DNA of 64,000 nucleotides. Source: Octopus vulgaris (taxonomy: Eukaryota). Below the pieces are notes generated by a model. That model did not search any database and was not told the origin of the DNA. It was given only the letters and a program-made list of their open reading frames with translations. Positions 3,545 through 57,268 of this stretch are shown here, in pieces. Numbering within the stretch: position 1 is the stretch's first letter; each line of letters starts with the position of its first letter. Location: the NCBI GenBank assembly GCA_951406725.2, contig OX597831.1, forward strand, positions 33,976,001 to 34,040,000. The letters are read 5' to 3'. Position numbers and translations under genes: made by a program.

Positions 3545-4828
3545 GCCGTTAAATTTATCTCACGGTGACCCTAATATGCAACGGTCTGGTTGCTATTTGA
3601 CTGCCCACAAGAAGCTTGCGACTTTGTAAGCCAGCCCCTTGAGGGCAAAGAAATATTGTTTCTCCCAAACTATATGGGACAAAAATTATTGAGGGCTTGG
3701 ATCTGCGGCCTACCACCCGGAGTTGAGCCCGAGTGGATAGAGGACTCTATCCGCCGGGGTCTGGGTGGGAGCAGTGCCAAGCTGCTAAATGTAAAAGTGT
3801 TGCCTGCGGCTGATTGGGAGGGGTCGAAAGCTGTTTTGACCCTATGGACCCAATCAGCCGAAAGTCTGGTTTTTCCAGATATTTGAGGATGGCCGGGTCC
3901 AGGTATCCGGTGATGCTTGAGGGACGCCTCCCAAGTGTCACCTGTGCCTGGAGACCGGCCACATTAAGAAGAACTGCCCCAGGGACCAAAGTAGGATCCT
4001 GGAGCAGTTAATGGTGGAATCTCTCCCTGCTCCCCCAATGAAGGGAGAGAAACAGAACGAGGAAATTGCTACATCCTCAAAAAAGAAAAGAAAGATGGGC
4101 AACAATGGTGACCCACGGAAAGACCCGGGAGCTGCGGGAGAAAAAGAGGACCCGTTGTGTGCAACACAGGAACCTCACCCTCCCGCGGCCCAGGGAAAAA
4201 AGGAAAAAAAGAAGAAAGAGAAACGGGACGCCGCCGGCGGATTGTAACACGCAGACGGCGTCTCTCAAGTCTCCTCAGGTGGGTGTGCCGCCGGAGAATC
4301 AATATGTGGTTCTCTTCCACAAAGAAGGAACGCTTGAAAACGAGATAGGTAAAATGAGAAGGAGAGGCCAATGGGAGGGACTTCGGTCCTGCACGGAGGA
4401 CCCCGAGTGGCCTTCGCAGGTGGCTGCGGAGGTCCTATAGGATAGCGATCTGAGCAGGATCGTGAATTCCTTCCCGGAGGACTCCTTTCAATTTATACCT
4501 GTATGGTACGGCCTGACAAAGAATGATTGCCTCAATGAAGCAATAGCGCTGGTCGGCCGGGTGACGAACTTTTTGAATGTTTTAAAAAGAAAAATTGTAT
4601 CGTATTGAGAAAGAGGTTCATTGCCTCATTGTGACTTTTGTGAAATTTTGTGACATTTTGAATTTTTTGAAAAAAGAACATTGTCTTAGAGAAGCCGAAG
4701 TCGGCGGGCGCTTTCGTCTTCTCCCATCACCATCTTTGTTCCATCACCATCATTCATACCATCAATGTCTACGTCCAGCCCGCAAAGCTACACCTGTGTA
4801 ATGCCCCTGTGGTAAATTAGATAAAATA
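3545..4828 (+). mobile_element. 5'-truncated non-LTR retroelement carrying only a degenerate L1/Tx1-like ORF1 (RRM-like region plus CCHC zinc knuckle)
   Basis: Frameshifted ORF reads LFDCPQEACDF...RAWICGLPPGVEPEWIE...EGR/PKCHLCLETGHIKKNCP (CX2CX4HX4C at 3936-3977), then a K-rich linker and a C-terminal segment to about 4580. It ends with a short 3' UTR, the A-rich end ATAAAATAAA and a 17-bp TSD AAGTAGCTTGCTTACCA (3528-3544, 4829-4845). Confidence 0.8.
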
Positions 4829-4969
4829 AAGTAGCTTGCTTACCAACCACATGGTTTCGAGTTCAGTCCCACTGCGTGGCACTTTGGGCAAGTGTCTTCT
4901 ACTATAGTCTCGTGCTGACCAAAGCCTTGTGAGTGGATTTGGAAGACGGAAACTGAAAAGAAGCCCGTC

Positions 4970-4970
<1 letters not shown>
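4829..4970 (+). mobile_element. SINE family A, continuation after the insertion
   Basis: B-box-like GAGTTCAGTCCC and body CACTTTGGGCAAGTGTCTTCTACTATAG...GGAAACTGAAAAGAAGCCCGTCG, as in other copies. Confidence 0.9.
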
Positions 4971-5011
<41 letters not shown>

Positions 5012-5229: not shown

Positions 5230-5431
5230 TTCCTTTACTTGTTTAGAATGCAGCCATGCTGGGACATCACGTTGAAAATTTTTTAGTCGAATGAATCGAC
5301 CTTAGTAATTACTTTTTAAAAGCTGGTACTTATTCTATCGACCTCTTTTACCAAACCGCTAAGTTACGGTGACGAAAACACACCAGCACTACTTGTCAAG
5401 CGGCGGTGACGGAACTGACACACACACAACA

Positions 5432-5475
<44 letters not shown>

Positions 5476-5685
5476 CGAACGCACATACACTCACATACAC
5501 ACACACACACATGGATATACATGTATACGAAGGGCTTCTATCAGCTTCCGTCTGTCAAATCCATTCACAAACCTTAAGTCAGCTCGAGGCTATAGTAGTG
5601 GACATTTGCCCAAAGTGTCATGCGGTACACTGAACCCCAAGCCATGCGGTTGGGGGAAGCAAGCCTTTTACAACACACCACGCTT
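5230..5685 (-). mobile_element. SINE family A, diverged full-length copy with internal (GCAC)n
   Basis: Reverse complement of the family A head, body and tail. Confidence 0.8.
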
Positions 5686-5805
5686 ATATTGATATATATA
5701 TTGATAGAAATGGTAAGACAACAAAAGAATGAAAGAGACCTCGATGTTAAGTAAATAGAGGAATTTATATGTAAATGGAATATGTGACAATTATTCGGTA
5801 GCCAT

Positions 5806-5867
5806 GATAAAACTTCCGAGTTTCGGATGCCGAAGTGGAAATCCACGCCACCATCTCTTCAGTTATC
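5806..5867 (-). ncRNA. Type I hammerhead ribozyme motif, unit 1 (GUU site)
   Basis: GAUAA-CUGAAGA-GAUG...CAUCC-GAAA-CU-CGGA-AG-UU-UUAUC. Confidence 0.55.
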
Positions 5868-5916
5868 CGGCCATCTAAACTGTAAATGTAATATGTGACA
5901 ATTATTCGGTAGCCAT

Positions 5917-5977
5917 GATAAGACTCCGAGTTTCGGATGCCGAGGTGGAAATCTACGCCGCCATCTCTTCAGTTATC
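5917..5977 (-). ncRNA. Type I hammerhead ribozyme motif, unit 2 (GUC site)
   Basis: GAUAA-CUGAAGA-GAUG...CAUCC-GAAA-CU-CGG-AG-UC-UUAUC. Stem I is GAUAA/UUAUC, the core is intact and stem III is short. Confidence 0.7.
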
Positions 5978-6101
5978 CGGCCATCGGAAACTGTAAGTGT
6001 AATATGTGCCAATTATTCGGTAGCCATGATAAAACTCTCCACCTGGGCATCCGAAACTCGGAGTTTTTTCATGGCTACCGAATGATTGCCACACATATTA
6101 C

Positions 6102-6184
<83 letters not shown>

Positions 6185-6186
<2 letters not shown>

Positions 6187-8568
6187 GTATATTTCTGCAT
6201 ATATGACGACGACTGAATACTAAAATTTACTCTAAAAATTTAGGGTCTCTTATACCACCATTCTAAATATCAAACCTTGAATTTCAAGTGAGCTTATAAG
6301 TAAGATAACCTCGATCTCGGTGCGATAACCACAGAGACACGTGAACAGGTTAACAAAATAAAAAAAATTATAATATAGGTAATAAAAACAATTTTACTTT
6401 ATATATTATTGGCATATGTTCATAATAAATAGCCTATTCGAGAGATAATTCTCTATCATTGAAATCAACTTTTATCTATGCGATTTGGGATGGGAAAATG
6501 TAAACATCGAGTTTTGTTGCGCTCACAATAACCTTTATCTTTCGTTAACCTTTCAAAAAGTTTAATGGTGATGTATAAGTGTAGTAATAACATTTAGAAT
6601 AACATATTTATATTTTTCATAAAATATCTATAATCATTTGATGGTAAATAACACAATTTGGATTACACACAACCTTTATTTTTCAATAAAATTATTTTAC
6701 GGTCATTGCAATTAAAACATAAGACACTATATTTAAAAAAAATTTCCTATCAAGATAAATGATATTGATAAAACTTCAAACCTGACACATGTATTTATCT
6801 AAAACCTATCAAATTCCTCACAATCATTACAATCTGTTTCTAAACGTTTCCTACACATATAAGACTTATCACGTATGTCTTCATTGTAAGGATTCCAGTC
6901 GGGTTCTGGTGAATCGACTTCTACTCCGACGTCGCTATTGTACAGAATATCATCTTTGGTACCATCGATGACATTAGAGATACCGCATTTTAAAAATGAT
7001 TTTATTACATTTTCTACTTTATTTTTGACCCATGCCTTTATAACGAAATCAGACATCACCAAGTGAGGCAGCACGATTAACTCCACCGTTTGTAAAAGAT
7101 TTTTCTCTATTCGTAAACCAGTCATTCCATTGCTCTCTCACATTATCTTTAAATAGTTTGTTTAAACTGACACCAGGTGGCTGCAGTATAGAAGTCAAAC
7201 CCCCAAGAATAACAACAGTATCAGTATTGGTTTTGGGTACTCACGTTTTAGTATTTGCCGTTACGTGACTAAGAAACATATCCCAAACCAATAAACTGCG
7301 TTCGTTTCGTATGGCACCTGGTCCCCCTGTTCCAAATATTCTCAATCCATAATTTCATATCACTCTCGTTCATCCACCCTGTCTCGTGAAAATGAACAAA
7401 ACCACCTGGAGGAAAATCTATTTGGGGTTTAGTTTTTTGTATTATCAGCCATGCAGGATAATACCACCGTTAAACCTCGTTTTTTCATGTCCCGTGCTCT
7501 TAACGTGCACCGTTTCTTCTCCTTTCAAATCTACCGTTTTGTTACCCAGCATGTCAAAGTTTAACGGAGTTTTATCCATATTTCCAATATGAGCCAATGG
7601 AAACTGATGCATTTTTCTCAGCTGGATGATGAACTGGTGGAAAATGGTTACTTTGTGATCGAGATCTTTGGGGCGATTTTTGTTTTCTCCCTTATTACCA
7701 GATTTTTTTCTGTTCATAAAACAACTGAACCAGCCTACTGTGGCTTTAAACTCTTTACTTTCTTCTTTATGTGATTTAGCCCATTTTAGGACATAAGGTT
7801 TTATTTTATTTCGTGTTTCAATGAAGCCATCTAGTCTCTGCTGGACTATCCATTCTGCTACATCATTTTCTAACTTCGGCCAACGAGTGCTTCTTCTTCT
7901 CATTGCACGTTTTTGTTTGGGCATTTGCCTTAATTTTTTTCTTTCTCCACTCTCTTACCATCTTCTCGGTATGTTCTAACAACAGCACAATTGTTCGAAC
8001 TCTTGGTTCCTGCTATAATTTTCAATTTGAAACTAGCCTCATATTTTCTTCTTTTCGTTGGTGATTGCATATTGGTATGGGTATAAAATAATTATAAATT
8101 TCACTTGACTAGACAGTTTGTGCTTTTATATAAAGTATATTGAAAAGGTTATTGATACACCAGGCTGACTGTCACTGTTTAGAACATTGCTGTCTTAAGA
8201 ATCACTATTATCATATTGTTGTTAGCGATTGTTATAATAGTGATAAAGTTTTGATAAAGAAGAAGAATCAGGTTCTCTTTTTAGGCGATGTATGTATGCA
8301 AAAATATTATGTAGAAACAGATTTGTTATTTCGTTTATTTTAATTTGTAAGGATATAGTAAGTAAAAAAAAAAAACTTTTGTAAAAGCATCATCTTTACA
8401 TGACCAATATTTCTAAATATACCCGTTTGTTGCAAAAGCCATTCTGTACACAAATGGTTTTGTAATTTAGCAGTCCTCTTATACTACAAACATGAGAAAA
8501 ATTTATGATTTTTTTACAAATTATGGCCTCGTCTTATCTAAAGATCGTCTTATACGCGGAAATATACG

Positions 8569-9451: not shown

Positions 9452-9947
9452 CTTAATTTATCGTGCCCGAAATGATGAAAGGCAAACCTAGGCGGAATTT
9501 GATCTCAGAATTTGAAGACGAACAAATTACCTATTTCTTTACTACCCACAAGGGGCTAAACACAGAGAGGACAAACAAGGACGGACAAACAGATTAAGTC
9601 GATTATATCGACCCCAATGCGTAACTGGTACGTATTTAATCGACCCTAAAAGGATGAAAGGCAAAGTCGACCTCGGCGGAATTTGAACTCAGAACTTAAC
9701 CGCAGACGAAATTCCTATTTCGTTATTACCAACAAGGAGCTAAACATAGAGGGGACAAACAATGACAGACAAACGGATTAAGTCGATTACATCGACTCCA
9801 GTGCGTAACTGGTACTTAATTTATCGACCCCGAAAGGATGAAAGGCAAAGTCGACCTCGGCGGAATTTGAACTCAGAACGTAGCGGCAGACGAAATACTG
9901 CTAAGCATTTCGCCCGGCGTGCTAACGATTCTGCCAGCTCGCCGCCT
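9452..9947 (-). mobile_element. SINE family B multimer (head GGCGGCGAGCTGGCAGAA; core GTCGACTTTGCCTTTCATCCTTTCGGGGTCGATAAA, Meta-domain-like)
   Basis: Three tandem core units; homologous copies occur across the window. Confidence 0.85.
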
Positions 9948-20250: not shown

Positions 20251-20719
20251 TGAATATATAAACATGTGCCTGTCCAACAGTATATATATATACATCAATC
20301 ATAAGGGCATACAAATGTGCTTATGATTGATATGAATTTTAATTCTATAGCTGTATAATGCTATTTTAGGCTTGCAACCACTAATATTATTGTTGTTGTT
20401 ATTATCAACTATTTATATTATCCTGGATAATAATAACAATAATACATGTGGAATGAAAGGGTCACTGAAGAGGTCACAGACGTGTGACGAAAGATTTCAA
20501 GACAATGGAAACAACATAAAATAAGAACAATACTAAACGGGTGCAGAACGAATATAGAGCGCGTATGTTTATTTGGTCCGAAGAAGAAAAAATGAAAAGA
20601 AAATGACTATCCTGAAATGCAATATATAGCTACGCAGCCAGGAGGTAAAATTGTAAAATTAATAGCAAAGAAAACAGAAAGAAATGTTTGGGATTTATAG
20701 AAATTCTAATTTAGATTAA

Positions 20720-30047: not shown

Positions 30048-30520
30048 GATTTAGGCACAAGGTCGACAATTTTGAAGGAAGAGTGTTAGTCGATACCATA
30101 GACCCCAATACTTGACTGGCACTGTACTTTGTCGACCCCCGAGGGATGAAAGACAAAGTTGATTTCGATTAGAATTAAACACAGGAAGTGAAGATCCAGA
30201 ACTACCGTAAGGTATTTTTTCTGTCCTCCTTACGAAGTACTTGAATGACACTCTATTTTATCGACCCTGGAGGGGTGAAAGGTAAAATTGCCCTCTGCTG
30301 GATTTAGACTCAGAACATAAAAAGCCGGAAAAATATCACAAGGCATTTTATCCGACGCCTTAACGAAATACTTGATCGGTACTTTATTTTATCGACACCA
30401 GAGGAATGAAAGACAAAGTTGACTTCGGTGGCATTTGAACTCATAACGTAAAGAGCCGGAAGAAATATCACTAAACATTTTTTCAACCACCGTAAAATTT
30501 TTGTCAATCCACCGCTCCGA
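30048..30520 (-). mobile_element. Diverged SINE family B multimer
   Basis: Three repeats of TCGACCCC..GGATGAAAG.CAAAGT.GAC. Confidence 0.7.
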
Positions 30521-42803: not shown

Positions 42804-43700
42804 CGAGGTCTGATCAATAAGTATCCGGACAGTTGCGCCAGAGTAACGAAACTATAGTATGCAGAGTAAAGCTTCTTGGCAAAGTTTGACCTTGAACACT
42901 GCCGTATAAGTGCACTAAGTTTCAACGTTCTAGCTTACTTCCGCTGTTTACAGCAGTGCACGGAAGGAAGGTGTGTAGCGTCTGATTATCGCATTGAAAA
43001 TGACAGAGACGGTTGAGCAGAGAACCTGCATCAAATTTTACCAAAAGCTTGGCGATACATGTTGAGAGGCCTATGCAAAGTTTTCAAAAAGTTTTCATTG
43101 TACTTGACGCAATCAGCGAGATTTTGTGCAACAGAAACCCGTGTGTCTTACTGATCAGCTGAAAGCAGTTTTGGCACTAACTTGGCAGACACGCGTCTCA
43201 TACTCAAATCTTCAGTGATAATGGACTGAACTGATCCGTAACCAATTTACACTTCCTCTGGTAACTCATAGGTGATGATTCGACTATTTCTCCATCACAG
43301 CTGTACGCATATATGCGATGAATTTTTCAGTTCTGCTGGTTGAGGGTCTTCCAGAACGTTCGTCAATATCAACATTTTTCGGCCATCTTGGAAACAGGTG
43401 AACCACCCATACGCTTGTGTGCAGCTCATACACTCCTCTCCATACACTTTCTGCAACTTTTCGTAGACCTCTGAGAAGGTATCCCTATGAAAACTTTCTC
43501 TGTCATGGTCAATACGATCATCACACGCTACACACCTCCCTTCGAAGCACTGCTGTAAACAGCGAAAGTGAGCTAGAACAAAAAAACGTATTGCACATGT
43601 AGAAACAAGGTGCAGATCAATCTGTGCGAAGCGGTTTTACTCTACGTTCTTTAGCTACGTTAATATGGCAACAATCCGGATACTTGTCGATCAGACCTCG
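42804..43700. mobile_element. Non-autonomous mariner element built from two opposed 5' ends
   Basis: TA TSD and TIR CGAGGTCTGATCAATAAGTATCCGGA / TCCGGATACTTGTCGATCAGACCTCG. The inverted arms extend more than 200 bp, through the transposase ATG. Confidence 0.9.
43085..43506 (-). pseudogene. mariner transposase N-terminal fragment
   Basis: EVYEKLQKVYGEECMSCTQAYGWF..FQDGR..DIDERSGRPSTS...IITEDLSMRRVSAKLVPKLLSADQ (WVPHEL-type motif), with frameshifts. Confidence 0.85.
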
Positions 43701-52894: not shown

Positions 52895-54209
52895 TATTCT
52901 GAAAGACTCTCGGATAGTTCTTAATTACCGGTTATTCTTTACTTGAAAACAGACAAAACCAAATCACCAAAGGTTTCAAAAGTGACTCAAAGAGACAATA
53001 TTCTCCTTAGAATGCGAGCTGCACCCAACAATGCTGTCTTCTGGATCACTTCGAGCCTGACAGTTAGCTCTAATATTCTTAATGTGTTTTTCAAAGCCCT
53101 TGGAAGCTGCTCCTAATGCTCCAATTACCACCGGTATCACAATTTCTTTCCTCGTACCTCATAACTTTCCTATCTTGTTCTGCGGTGGCTGCTAATTTTC
53201 AGTTTTTTTCTGTTTCCTTACATTTTACCCTCAAATCGCCTGGTATTGCAGCATCTATTAACTCTACTTTTTTTTCATCTTTATCGATGAGTACGATAGC
53301 TGGTCGTGTCGCCTCTATGACTTGGTCGCACTGCATGTTAAAATCCTAGAGAATTTTCTAATGTTCCTTTTTCCATCACTCCCTCTGGCTTGTGTTTATA
53401 CTATTGTTCGGCTCACTCAAGGTTTGCTTTACCACACAAATGGAAATAGTTGGCCACATTGTCGTGTCTCCTTTTGTATTCTCGTTGTGCAAGCTTACAG
53501 CATTCGCTAACAATATAGCTTATACGAACCAAGCCAGGCTATTCTCCTCTTTCCTTACACAATCTTCACAACACACCAATCTCCGTTCCCCTTCCTTCCT
53601 CTTCACATACAATCTTGATTCATCACTCTTGGAGTGTAGTTCCTAGTTCCTTGTCATTAATTTACGTGTTTTCCGGCCTATCTTTTGTAATTCATGCTTC
53701 TTCCAAGATACTATTCCTGCCCCATATCACATCAAATCAACCGCCCACGTACTGCTCTAATCTTACAGCGGCCATTTAGCTTCGATTGGAGCACAAGCCG
53801 GGTTTTCCTCAAATACTCTTCCTTGTACATTTCTTTCATGTTGTGTTCATTCATCTTATCTTTTTCAATGATACCCAGGTACTTATATCCTTCTTCTCCG
53901 ACTTCCTTTATAGTTTCACCACTTTCCAGCTTGATCCCATGGCTTTTACTGATTTCCCCCCTTTTGAGAATCATTACACCACATTTCTCGATCCCAAATT
54001 CCATGTCCTTATATTTGCTAATCATCTGCACAGTAGCCGTCAAACACTCAATTTCTTTCTCGGTCTTAGCGAATAGCTTTAGGTCATCCATAAACCACAG
54101 GCTGTTTACTTTCACCCGGCCTAGCACGTACTCCACACGCATCTTTCTTAAAACGCTCGTTAGTGGCAGGTTGCAGACAACAAATAGGAGAGGCGACAAA
54201 CTGTCCCCA
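52895..54209 (-). mobile_element. Dong/R4-clade non-LTR retrotransposon, 5'-truncated and internally deleted
   Basis: RT motifs GDSLSPLLF...FMDDLKLFAK...FGIEKC...YKYLGI; IVSECCKLAQREYKRRHDNVA; RLE motifs RPAIVLIDK...IDAAIPGD...VIGALG. Flanked by (TAT)n. Confidence 0.9.
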
Positions 54210-54219
54210 ATTATCATTA

Positions 54220-54269
<50 letters not shown>

Positions 54270-54290
54270 GTTACTTTTTTTTTCTTCTTC

Positions 54291-54880
54291 TTTCAAATTT
54301 GCTTCCATTTCTTGCCGAGTGTCTTCCTGACTCCTAGGGCAAAGAAACTCATACATTGGTAGGCCATTAAACCAAACTCAGTAGTTCGTTCATTTTTTTT
54401 TTTTTTATTTTTTTTTTAAAGTTAAATTAAAATACATGAGCAGCAACAGTTCTCACATCGACAATGCTCTTCTCAATACGTGTGATGTACCAGTTAAGAC
54501 AATCTTTTGCACTTCTTGCAGGGATGGTAAGCCAGGGATCATTCTCATATAATTTTCGGTTCCCTTCTTGATCATTCCTAGTGCTCCTACGATCACTGGT
54601 ATTGTAACCGCCTTGAGATGCCACATTTTCTCAATTTCAATGAGTAGGTCTTTATATTTTCTGAGCTTGTCAAACTCTTTCGCTGAGATATTATGATCAC
54701 AGGGGATGCTCATGTCGATCAATAAGCAAACTTTATTGTTTTGGTCTTTCACAACAATATCTGGTTTATTGGCCTTGATGGTTCGGTCTGTATGTACTGG
54801 AAAGTCCCACAGAATGGTTACATTTTCTCCTTCAGTTACAGCCTCAGGGTGGTGATTATACCACTTGTCGGCAGTTTTGA
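54291..54880 (-). mobile_element. Second Dong/R4-clade element, 3' end (RLE domain open to the stop at 54453)
   Basis: WYNHHPEAV..ILWDFPVHTDRTIKANKPDIVVKD..LIDMSIP..KLRKYKDL..IPVIVGALG..QKIVLTGTSHVLRRALSM*. (TAT)n on both sides. Confidence 0.9.
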
Positions 54881-54983
<103 letters not shown>

Positions 54984-55966
54984 TCGCTTAGGCAGAGAAG
55001 TGCTGATAACTTAGTGTTAGAACTAAAAAAACACATAATTCAGAAACACGCGTCAGTCGAGTAGAGAACAGTAGTAAGAAATTAAATGACACGGGAATAA
55101 GAAGTTATGTAAGGAAGTTCAAAAAATAATTTCTTAATTTCTTTTAACCTTGTACTTAATTCACTGTTTGGGTTCCGGCCATCCTGGGGCACCGCATTGA
55201 AGTGCTTAGTCAAACAAATCGACCCCAGCACTTCTTATTCTTTAAGCCTGGGACTTATTATATCGATCGCTTTCGCCTAACCACTAAGTTACGGGAACGT
55301 AACCAAACCTACTTTGGTTACGTAATTAGTACTGATGTCTCCTTTACTTTTTCTTTTCTCTCATTAATTTAGAAAACAATTAGCGGAATATTTCTTCATT
55401 AACTGGATAATTATTAGTTACTGATATCCTTTCCATTTACGTGTCCAGTCTTGACACGGCAAATAAAAAACTCAAAATTATCACGTGCCTTAAAAAGCAC
55501 CATTTAATATAATTTTCTATATCTTTTAAAATCATTTTCGGTTTTATTTTTTATCATTGGTGTTTTATCTGTTATTTGCAGTTTTTTTTCCTTATTTTAT
55601 TCTCAAAGTTCAGTCTAAATTAAAATGACATTTGTTGCTGATATTTCGCATGATAAATGAATAAATTGCGTTCCTTGACAGAACCGACGCTAATTTTTCT
55701 TTATTAACAATATCCCAATGAAATACAAACATGAAATAAATCTGTTTTTAAACTTATTTAAAAGACGCGGAGAAAAGACACGCAAATTCAACGAAGAATC
55801 TGTTACCTTGAGGCAAAAATAATAAAACAAAAAAGGAGAAAGAAAAGAAAAATGTGTAATATCATAAACTACAAGTCAGGAAGTAAATGACACCATTTTG
55901 AGGATATTAGCAAACATATAACTTATGCAATGGTGCATATTTCATATAGAAAATAATCAACATAAT

Positions 55967-57268
55967 CTTCTTCTTCTTCTTCTTCTTCTTCTTCTTCTTC
56001 TTCTTCTTCTTCTTCTTCTTCTTCTTCTTCTTCTTCTTCTTCTTCTTCTTTTTCTTCTTCTTTTTCTTCTTCTTTTTCTTCTTCTTTTTCTTCCCCTTCT
56101 TCTTCTTCTTCTTCTTTTTCTTCCTCTTCTTCTTTTTCTTCTTCTTTTTCTTCTTCTTTTTCTCCTCCTCCTTCTTCTTCTTTTTCTACTTCTTTTTCTT
56201 CCCCTTCTTTTTCTTCTTCTTTTTCTTCCTCTTCTTCTTTTTCTTCCTCTTCTTCTTTTTCTTCTTCTTTTTCTTCTTCTTTTTCTCCTCCTCCTTCTTC
56301 TTCTTGTTCTACTTCTTTTTCTTCCTCTTCTTCTTTTTCTTCTTTTTTTTCTTCTTCTTTTTCTCCTCCTCCTTCTTCTTCTTTTTCTTCTTTTTTTTCT
56401 TCTTCTTTTTCTCCTCCTCCTTCTTCTTCTTTTTCTTCTTCTTTTTCTTCTTCTTTTCCTTCCTCTTCTTCTTTTTCTTCTTTTTCTTCCTCTTCTTCTT
56501 TTTCTTCTTCTTTTTCTTCTTCTTTTTCTCCTCCTCCTTCTTCTTCTTTTTCTTCTTCTTTTTCTTCTTCTTTTTCTTCCTCTTCTTCTTTTTCTTCTTC
56601 TTTTTCTTCTTCTTTTTCTCCTCCTCCTTCTTTTTCTTCCTCTTCTTCTTTTTCTTCTTCTTTTTCTTCTTCTTTTTCTCCTCCTCCTTCTTCTTCTTCT
56701 TCTTCTTCTTCTTTTTCTCCTCCTCCTCCTCCTCCTTCTTCTTCTTCTTCTTCTTCTTCTCCTCCTTCTTCTCCTCCTCCTTCTTCTCCTCCTCCTTCTC
56801 CTTCTTCTTCTTCTTCTTCTTCTTCTTCTTCTTCTTCTGCTTCTCCTCCTCCCTCCTCGTCCTCCTCGTCCTCGTTCTCGTCCTCCTCCTTCTTCTTCTT
56901 CTTCTTCTTCTTCTTCTTCTTCTTCTCCTCCTCCTCGTCCTCCCTTCGTCCTCGTCCTCCTCCTCCTTCTTCTCCTCCTCCTTCTTCTCCTCCTCCTTCT
57001 CCTTCTTCTTCTTCTTCTTCTTCTTCTGCTTCTCCTCCTCCTCCCCTCCTTCTGCTTCTTCTTCTTCCTCTCCCTCCTCGTCCTCCTCGTCCTCGTTCTC
57101 GTCCTCCTCCTTCTTCTTCTCCTCCACCTCGTCCTCCCCTCGTCCTCCTCCTCCTCCTCGTCCTCCTCCTTCTCCTCCCCGTCCTCCTCCTTCTCCCCGT
57201 CCTCCTCCTCCTCCTCCTTCTTCTTCTTCTTCTTCTTCTTCTTCTTCTTCTTCTTCTTCTTCTTCTTG
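55967..57268. repeat. About 1.3-kb polypyrimidine/polypurine (CTT/CCT/TTT)n tract
   Basis: Directly visible; source of the poly-L, poly-R and poly-K ORFs. Confidence 0.95.

Follow-up and report, generated by a model that had tools for sequence, protein, structure and literature searches.

According to the accessible part of PMC4209133, the hammerhead ribozymes of metazoan Penelope-like elements (PLEs) possess a long helix II, a palindromic helix III, and a U-rich 5′ flank; they occur in thousands of copies, the majority of which are truncated remnants, and they cleave weakly and only as dimers. PLE insertions are described in the available portions of PMC8557442 and PMC8969392 as 5′-truncated partial tandems that are biased towards microsatellites and often have an adjacent inverted copy and a one-sided tail of 30–40 bp. 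In PAc of Anolis, reverse transcriptase (RT) starts at two internal sites, with the tail being the stretch between both, and the open reading frame (ORF) begins at helix II, which the ATG opens. The PAc hammerhead requires protein in order to cleave, and it is dispensable for insertion in vitro, as far as the accessible text of PMC11167929 reports.

Animal non-LTR retrozymes also carry hammerheads, and their RNAs measure 170–400 nt in the part of PMC7229834 that was available. The accessible portion of a preprint (bioRxiv 10.64898/2026.07.22.740005) gives retrozyme consensus lengths of 51–972 bp, an ancestry in pLTRs, and cleavage in one of nine dimers tested.

The hammerhead-bearing array described here lies in a window of 64 kb, which is the whole stretch of DNA that was analysed. 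It is probably one old, decaying insertion of a very abundant family, in which the hammerhead end likely represents the terminal repeat (pLTR) belonging to a Penelope-like retrotransposon, or to some non-coding derivative of one, and 5′-truncated pieces of that end were stacked and inverted in a microsatellite.

Architecture of the array and its hammerhead motifs

The window is microsatellite-rich and animal-like in character, with 127 rows of tandem repeats and a GC fraction of 0.29–0.44, and its repeats seem similar to those of an octopus genome. A 1.3-kb (TCT)n array of 434 copies with extreme strand skew occupies 55966–57267, and two other long-period tandems of a dispersed repeat, at 9486–9896 (184 bp × 2.2) and 30228–30471 (131 bp × 1.9), show no hammerhead match. 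Weak remnants of other kinds comprise a Tc5 transposase HTH at 7448–7954 on the minus strand (E 3.5e-4), a mariner HTH_48 at 43298–43636 on the minus strand (E 3.4e-5), and a zinc knuckle at 3921–4244 on the plus strand (E 2.6e-3). SINE-like dispersed repeats lie at 4829–5011, 5243–5468, and 5475–5683, the last of which abuts the insertion, and several more copies are found in the window.

Tandem Repeats Finder reports the array at 5770–6037, with a period of 111, 2.4 copies, and 93% matches. Repeat pieces extend over 5770–6108 and comprise two 111-bp units, a 46-bp partial unit, and an inverted 71-bp partial unit (Table 1). Read along the minus strand, the 46-bp 3′ piece is followed by unit 2 and then by unit 1, and the inverted piece meets the array head to head, forming arms of 59 nt that are 90% complementary, before ending on the (AC)14(AT)25 microsatellite, which is the likely target site of the insertion. 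All four pieces have one 3′ end in common and differ in their 5′ starts; they are thus 5′-truncated copies whose 3′ ends point outward. The left limit of the tail was set by a TA-rich run and by the SINE-like repeat ending at 5683, and the stretch 5690–5699 lies outside the alignment of sequencing contigs, which covered 5700–5900. No further copies of the unit, the tail, or the upstream word occur elsewhere in the 64-kb window.

Table 1. Features of the insertion, in window positions.
Feature	Positions	Strand	Details
3′ extension (tail) of the same repeat family	5690–5769	−	At one insertion end only; left limit approximate
Unit 1, 111 bp	5770–5880	−	Core 5862–5856; GAAA 5824–5821; GUU site 5811; extra A in helix III (5814/5815)
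Unit 2, 111 bp	5881–5991	−	Core 5972–5966; GAAA 5934–5931; GUC site 5922
Type I hammerhead of unit 2	5910–5983	−	11-bp helix I with bulged A (5916); interrupted helix II of 10–11 bp; palindromic helix III (5931–5923)
Third copy, 5′-truncated, 46 bp	5992–6037	−	Starts within helix III, 4 nt before the H17 base
Inverted 5′-truncated copy, 71 bp	6038–6108	+	Starts at the helix II 3′ arm and runs to the common 3′ end; without tail
(AC)14(AT)25 microsatellite	6106–6184	.	Abuts the inverted copy

The first-pass annotation, which was made from the letters alone, had placed the array at 5779–6108 with an exact 111-bp period. The array is real, but its pieces begin at 5770 and the element reaches left to about 5690. 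The period is borne out by the unit starts (5770, 5881, and 5992) and by the predicted cleavage positions, which are also spaced 111 nt apart. Inside the ribozyme, the offset between the units is 110, not 111, since unit 1 carries an additional base within helix III and is one base short at its 5′ end. Both local unit junctions are in identical register, and the two units differ by 8 events per 111 positions. The inverted partial unit at the microsatellite had been recognised correctly. The claim of one hammerhead per unit holds for both full units, but these are the only two whole hammerheads, the other two copies containing 3′ halves.

On the minus strand, both full units contain a type I hammerhead motif. 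It comprises CUGAAGA, a helix II that begins with GAUG/CAUC and includes an additional C, then GAAA, a helix III of short length, the NUH triplet, and a closing helix I, with the CUGANGA/GAAA/NUH core arranged in order around three helices. In unit 2, for which a complete core had been claimed, all the named elements were located, including GAUAA/UUAUC in helix I, the extra C at 5935, ACU/AGU in helix III, and GUC; the GUU reported for unit 1 was likewise seen, and unit 1 also has an additional A by which helix III is damaged. With the bulged A passed over, helix I reaches 11 pairs; helix II reaches 10–11 pairs with two mismatches, and helix III is an interrupted palindrome of odd length with a central G. 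An ATG opens helix II at 5854–5852 and 5964–5962 (minus strand), and the frames there stop early.

A strict type I descriptor finds exactly these two motifs in the 64-kb window. In 200 dinucleotide shuffles, a mean of 0.01 matches arose per window, with one match in 2 of the 200 and two matches in none; as the two real matches are copies of each other, they were counted as one event. These figures weigh against the very improbable explanation that an ordinary dispersed repeat takes on this fold by chance, or that the tandem is an assembly artefact. Such an explanation would sit with the Rfam results, in which the window has no match at the gathering score and hence no membership in the hammerhead model, although this bears on Rfam membership rather than on the fold. 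Over 5600–6300, Rfam searches up to E = 10 gave 18 weak rows, none of them ribozymes and all of them hairpin or AT-repeat artefacts. Folding z-scores of the motif (−0.7 to −1.3) would also sit with a chance fold. On the plus strand at 20465–20500, a separate combination of CUGAAGA-G, a 6-bp helix II, and GAAA has no convincing helix I, and may be a decayed minimal hammerhead of another family or chance.

As a monomer, helix III of unit 2 adds almost nothing to the predicted fold (−16.0 with versus −15.8 without). Its self-duplex, on the other hand, is predicted at −9.7 kcal/mol for unit 2, at −3.1 for unit 1, and at −6.4 for unit 1 with unit 2, the weak pairing of unit 1 being due to its extra A. 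A double hammerhead of two unit-2 copies reaches −45.9, compared with −32.0 for two monomers, and the ribozyme in source copies of the family is predicted to work as a dimer through its palindromic helix III. The active hammerhead is not the predicted ground state, either for unit 2 (−16.0 versus −24.3) or for the dimer (−45.9 versus −59.4), and pair probabilities of the helices in the hammerhead fold are 0.00–0.45; these are values from nearest-neighbour folding, which ignores tertiary contacts and proteins. Protein help is probable for the ribozyme of the source copies. In a transcript that includes the inverted copy, a long hairpin is predicted over unit 2. The local ribozyme is probably weak or dead, given the extra A in unit 1 and an inverted arm that would pair with unit 2.

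Abundance, extent, and variation of the family

Words of the stretch are contained in 20 of the 24 sequencing runs listed (10 studies and five coded organisms). Contigs of four runs (X1, X5, X8, and X17), which represent organisms A and B, were aligned on 5700–5900 at 80% likeness; statements about the family cover these two organisms only, with C, D, and E left out. X1 is possibly the source sample, whereas X5 is not. None of the runs that contain the stretch is listed as RNA. For X8 and X17, RNA is no more than a guess; contigs from these two are no proof of transcription, and their lack of cover past 5881 was not used for or against any explanation. No pile-up of molecule starts or stops appears along the alignment, which contigs are in any case unable to reveal.

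On these 201 bp, 6001 contigs match in X1 (organism A), 3772 in X5 (organism B, from another study), 903 in X8, and 269 in X17. Summed depth is 10^5–10^6, compared with about 15–45 for single-locus contigs, contig depth being no copy number. The array thus belongs to a very abundant repeat family that is present in two coded organisms from different studies. Pattern scans of metagenome, viral, and prokaryote genome contigs gave no match, as expected for animal DNA.

The 111-bp junction is scarce within this family. In X1, depth falls from 419387 at 5861–5867 to 4472 at 5882–5888 (1.07%), and in X5, it falls from 306100 to 298 over the same positions (0.10%); depth at the junction can be inflated by 3′-end contigs placed there and deflated by clipping at the damaged 5′ end of unit 1. 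Behind 5875, the loose ends of contigs (48, 56, 14, and 9 in the four runs) continue into an A-run and a shared word, not into the next unit. This upstream continuation is similar from run to run and, read on the sense strand, rich in U, with a low agreement of 0.53–0.63 over the 30 letters that are visible. Since the junction accounts for about 1% or less of the depth and most copies continue upstream into a shared sequence, 111 bp is not the unit of the family, which is longer upstream. The family also continues on the other side of the repeat, and the tandem unit is hence not its monomer.

In X1 and X5, depth over the left flank (5700–5769) matches that over the ribozyme, and single listed contigs bridge 5700–5814, while other family copies stop at 5766–5770 on (TA)n or (TG)n. 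Copies of the family therefore end at one of two alternative 3′ positions, which makes the tail optional. A change of strand occurs at nine of the 15 joints shown (two more are not shown), and six of these nine end at 5875–5879, beside the local unit starts. A strand-changing joint from 5813/5814 to 5875 recurs in X1, X5, and X8. At this joint, a 5-nt word, TCCGA, is common to helix III (5925–5929, plus strand) and to the sequence just 5′ of helix I (5988–5984, minus strand), which suggests microhomology-led template switching; joints could equally accumulate at this place through clipping at the extra base of unit 1.

Both organisms have contigs of the tandem type. One X1 contig contains the unit-2-type junction at a depth of 25.5, and the local tandem is therefore not an assembly artefact, although none of the contigs listed spans the whole stretch.

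Variation among the contigs was mapped on the structure of unit 1, with helices I and II as predicted before the contigs were seen. The 26 variant positions listed between 5776 and 5850 were used (seven tail rows were left out, and 5778 and 5814 were dropped as private to unit 1), a position being termed variable from 3% upwards in either X1 or X5; some variants near 5814 and 5875 are hidden by clipping. Variable positions make up 0 of 13 in the core, 6 of 50 among paired positions (of which four keep the pair and two break it), and 7 of 11 among unpaired positions; beyond the ribozyme, the 3′ part of the unit has 5 of 28. Core and paired positions are thus better conserved across copies than unpaired ones. 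The difference between core and unpaired positions persists in the interior, away from clipped edges (0 of 11 versus 5 of 9; p = 0.008), whereas that between the core and the 3′ part is not significant (p = 0.16); these p-values overstate independence, as the variants reflect few lineage events. A core that was no better conserved than the rest of the unit had been named in advance, together with a lack of cleavage, as grounds for abandoning the ribozyme; the expected difference is present inside the ribozyme, but not against the 3′ part alone.

In the CpG at 5824–5825, the bulged C varies by 24% and 14%, while the adjacent catalytic G12 varies by less than 3%. The CpG at 5796–5797, outside the ribozyme, varies on both sides (9.4/14.2% and 8.9/9.8%). 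Variation that spares the core and falls on unpaired positions places the hammerhead fold under selection in the source copies of the family. Together with the descriptor shuffles, and with units that differ at 8 sites, this structure-sparing variation largely refutes a chance fold.

GUU is the majority triplet of the family, as seen in the loose-end majorities before 5815 in all four runs and in three of the four local copies. A scheme in which GUC is the intact and GUU the decayed triplet was consequently rejected, the GUC of unit 2 being the minority letter.

Origin of the insertion

Assignment to PLEs derives from 5′-truncated copies that stand in tandem or inverted, from a candidate 3′ tail on one side, from targets in microsatellites, and from the palindrome in helix III, all of which are published marks of these elements. 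The partial tandem with its adjacent inverted copy is of the form known from EN+ PLEs. Insertion into AT-rich or microsatellite DNA is seen both in the local microsatellite and in the loose ends before 5766–5770. The one-sided extension is present family-wide and measures at least 70 bp, against the 30–40 bp published. As in PLE-type hammerheads, a long helix II is closed by G10.1–C11.1 and accompanies a palindromic helix III; the extra nucleotide between A9 and G10.1 is absent in both units, and no insertion is listed there among the family contigs.

Membership of the family in an autonomous PLE is likely. Near the locus, neither RT nor GIY-YIG was found in the 114 of 210 frames of at least 75 aa that were scanned (96 low-complexity frames were left out), and neither a reading frame nor linkage to an autonomous PLE was seen across the visible 30 letters of the upstream continuation. 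An RVT_1 fragment at 53735–54292 on the minus strand (E 1.6e-7) was rejected as a partner, as it lies 48 kb away, has an FMDD motif, is LINE-like, and is apparently unrelated. No tRNA was found, and the repeat is hence not a tRNA-headed SINE.

Insertion could have proceeded as follows. The endonuclease of the element would nick AT-rich DNA such as a TA/CA repeat, and RT would start inside the RNA, a downstream start giving the tail and an upstream start giving ends at 5766–5770. For the local insertion, RT may have begun at the downstream start and come to a halt in the U-run immediately before helix I. Three restarts or template switches, one of them onto the opposite strand, would then have yielded two 111-bp pieces, one 46-bp piece, and one inverted 71-bp piece. 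The copies have decayed since, as the 8 differences between units show. The two 111-bp pieces might stem from template jumps, from a small tandem template, or from later local duplication, the last of which would also give identical junctions.

The identical register of both local junctions counts against the PLE assignment, as a small tandem or circular template explains it more simply than two separate jumps. Distinctly unlikely is the proposal that the 111 bp itself replicates, as a minimal retrozyme sub-lineage cut from a pLTR, whose concatemers would self-cleave to 111-nt monomers or circles and be copied more than once round. Two identical junctions, 2.4 copies, and cleavage sites exactly 111 nt apart speak for it, as do a junction depth in X1 of about 4000—far above that of single-locus contigs (about 25–45)—and the tandem-type contigs of both organisms. 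With two consecutive units bearing the motif, the locus would also probably fall under the definition in the available part of bioRxiv 10.64898/2026.07.22.740005. Against it stand a junction at about 1% or less of family depth, part of which possibly comes from 3′-end contigs, the 8 events by which units of 111 differ, and an inverted copy and tail that tie the locus to a longer family. The poor cleavage of PLE-type motifs (accessible part of PMC4209133) and the eight of nine predicted dimers left uncleaved (available part of bioRxiv 10.64898/2026.07.22.740005) count against it as well.

The first-pass annotation had named both Penelope pLTRs and stand-alone retrozymes as classes for the array. 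The former fits, but a stand-alone 111-nt retrozyme does not fit a family that continues on both sides and whose junction amounts to about 1.1% in X1 and 0.1% in X5; its 111-nt unit survives only as a minor sub-lineage. Such a sub-lineage might represent a retrozyme caught at birth, an idea that is just as doubtful. A breakage hotspot 5′ of helix I and an RT start 3′ of the ribozyme would have cut a 111-nt module from a Penelope pLTR, and a minor sub-lineage (about 1% of the family, in two species) would propagate as concatemers, with dimeric-hammerhead cleavage into 111-nt monomers or circles that are copied by the RT of the parent.

A longer non-coding non-LTR retrozyme is an unlikely source too. 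It would comprise the upstream part, the 111 bp, and the tail (perhaps 200–400 bp), make circles, and borrow PLE enzymes, the window holding a rearranged fragment of it. All that sets it apart from the PLE assignment is whether the end also belongs to an autonomous partner. A tail that matches the ribozyme in depth and exceeds the published tails in length would suit such an element, as would the lack of a visible ORF, the 170–400 nt typical of monomers in the accessible text of PMC7229834, and the sequence that retrozymes share with pLTRs according to the available part of bioRxiv 10.64898/2026.07.22.740005. Its ribozyme, however, has the PLE-type long helix II and not the canonical 4-bp form, many copies end at 5766–5770 on microsatellites, and strand-changing joints are common; as a retrozyme mobilised by a PLE would inherit the same traits, they separate the two only weakly.

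Comparison with described systems

Penelope ends with hammerheads are already described and common, as are their tandem or inverted insertions, and the locus has little significance as it stands. It is likely an ordinary sighting of a known kind, not a new tiny self-cutting RNA, and even its size is not new. No published description of this family was found in literature and supplement-motif searches that included the available parts of PMC13282606, PMC8967140, and PMC6962438; Repbase and Dfam were outside the search, and the family may well be filed there. The selection on the fold, with the catalytic G12 spared and its CpG partner free, bears on whether PLE hammerheads matter, given that the PAc hammerhead is dispensable for insertion in vitro (accessible part of PMC11167929). 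Should the 111-bp junction belong to a genuine sub-lineage, invertebrates would offer a direct example of the proposed step from pLTR to retrozyme, which has so far been argued from Xenopus trees.

Like animal non-LTR retrozymes, in the accessible parts of the sources on them, the locus is a short non-coding tandem with a GC content below 50% that is likely PLE-dependent. Two consecutive units each bear one type I hammerhead, helix III of unit 1 being damaged. The tandem junction is, however, a small minority of the family, and the ribozyme is of PLE type rather than of the canonical loop-loop form, with a helix II much longer than the canonical 4 bp of retrozymes. The first-pass annotation had called 111 nt small for this class, which is correct against the 170–400 nt in the available part of PMC7229834 but not against the 51–972 bp in that of bioRxiv 10.64898/2026.07.22.740005.

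With EN+ PLE insertions, as described in the accessible portions of PMC8557442 and of PMC11167929 (PAc), it shares a partial tandem, an adjacent inverted 5′-truncated copy, a putative tail confined to one end, (TA)n/(CA)n targets, and an ATG at the start of helix II. It differs from them in a tail of at least 70 bp instead of 30–40 bp, and in two full short units that stand in a row without an ORF between. The local repeat is not Naiad-like: Naiad-like PLEs lack canonical hammerheads, and three motifs of the repeat are absent from the supplement of the paper on Naiad-like elements.

The closest resemblance is to the pLTR hammerheads of Cervera and De la Pena 2014 (PMC4209133, available part), especially the forms with a small palindromic helix III found in Aedes, Drosophila willistoni, and Saccoglossus 2. 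Both have the type I topology, the CUGANGA/GAAA/NUH core, G10.1–C11.1, a long helix II, a palindromic helix III suited to dimers, and a U-rich 5′ flank, and both occur as thousands of dispersed, mostly truncated copies with motifs close together on opposite strands. Differences here are an odd palindrome with a central G, a helix I of up to 11 bp past the bulge, the lack of a linked ORF, and the absence of a base after A9, in place of which helix II has an additional C on its 3′ side; the base after A9 is present in 54 of 56 PLE hammerhead examples in the accessible part of PMC4209133, and two of the 56 lack it. The local hammerhead is a genuine PLE-type motif that would work like the ribozymes of PLE pLTRs, within an ordinary decayed Penelope-style insertion.
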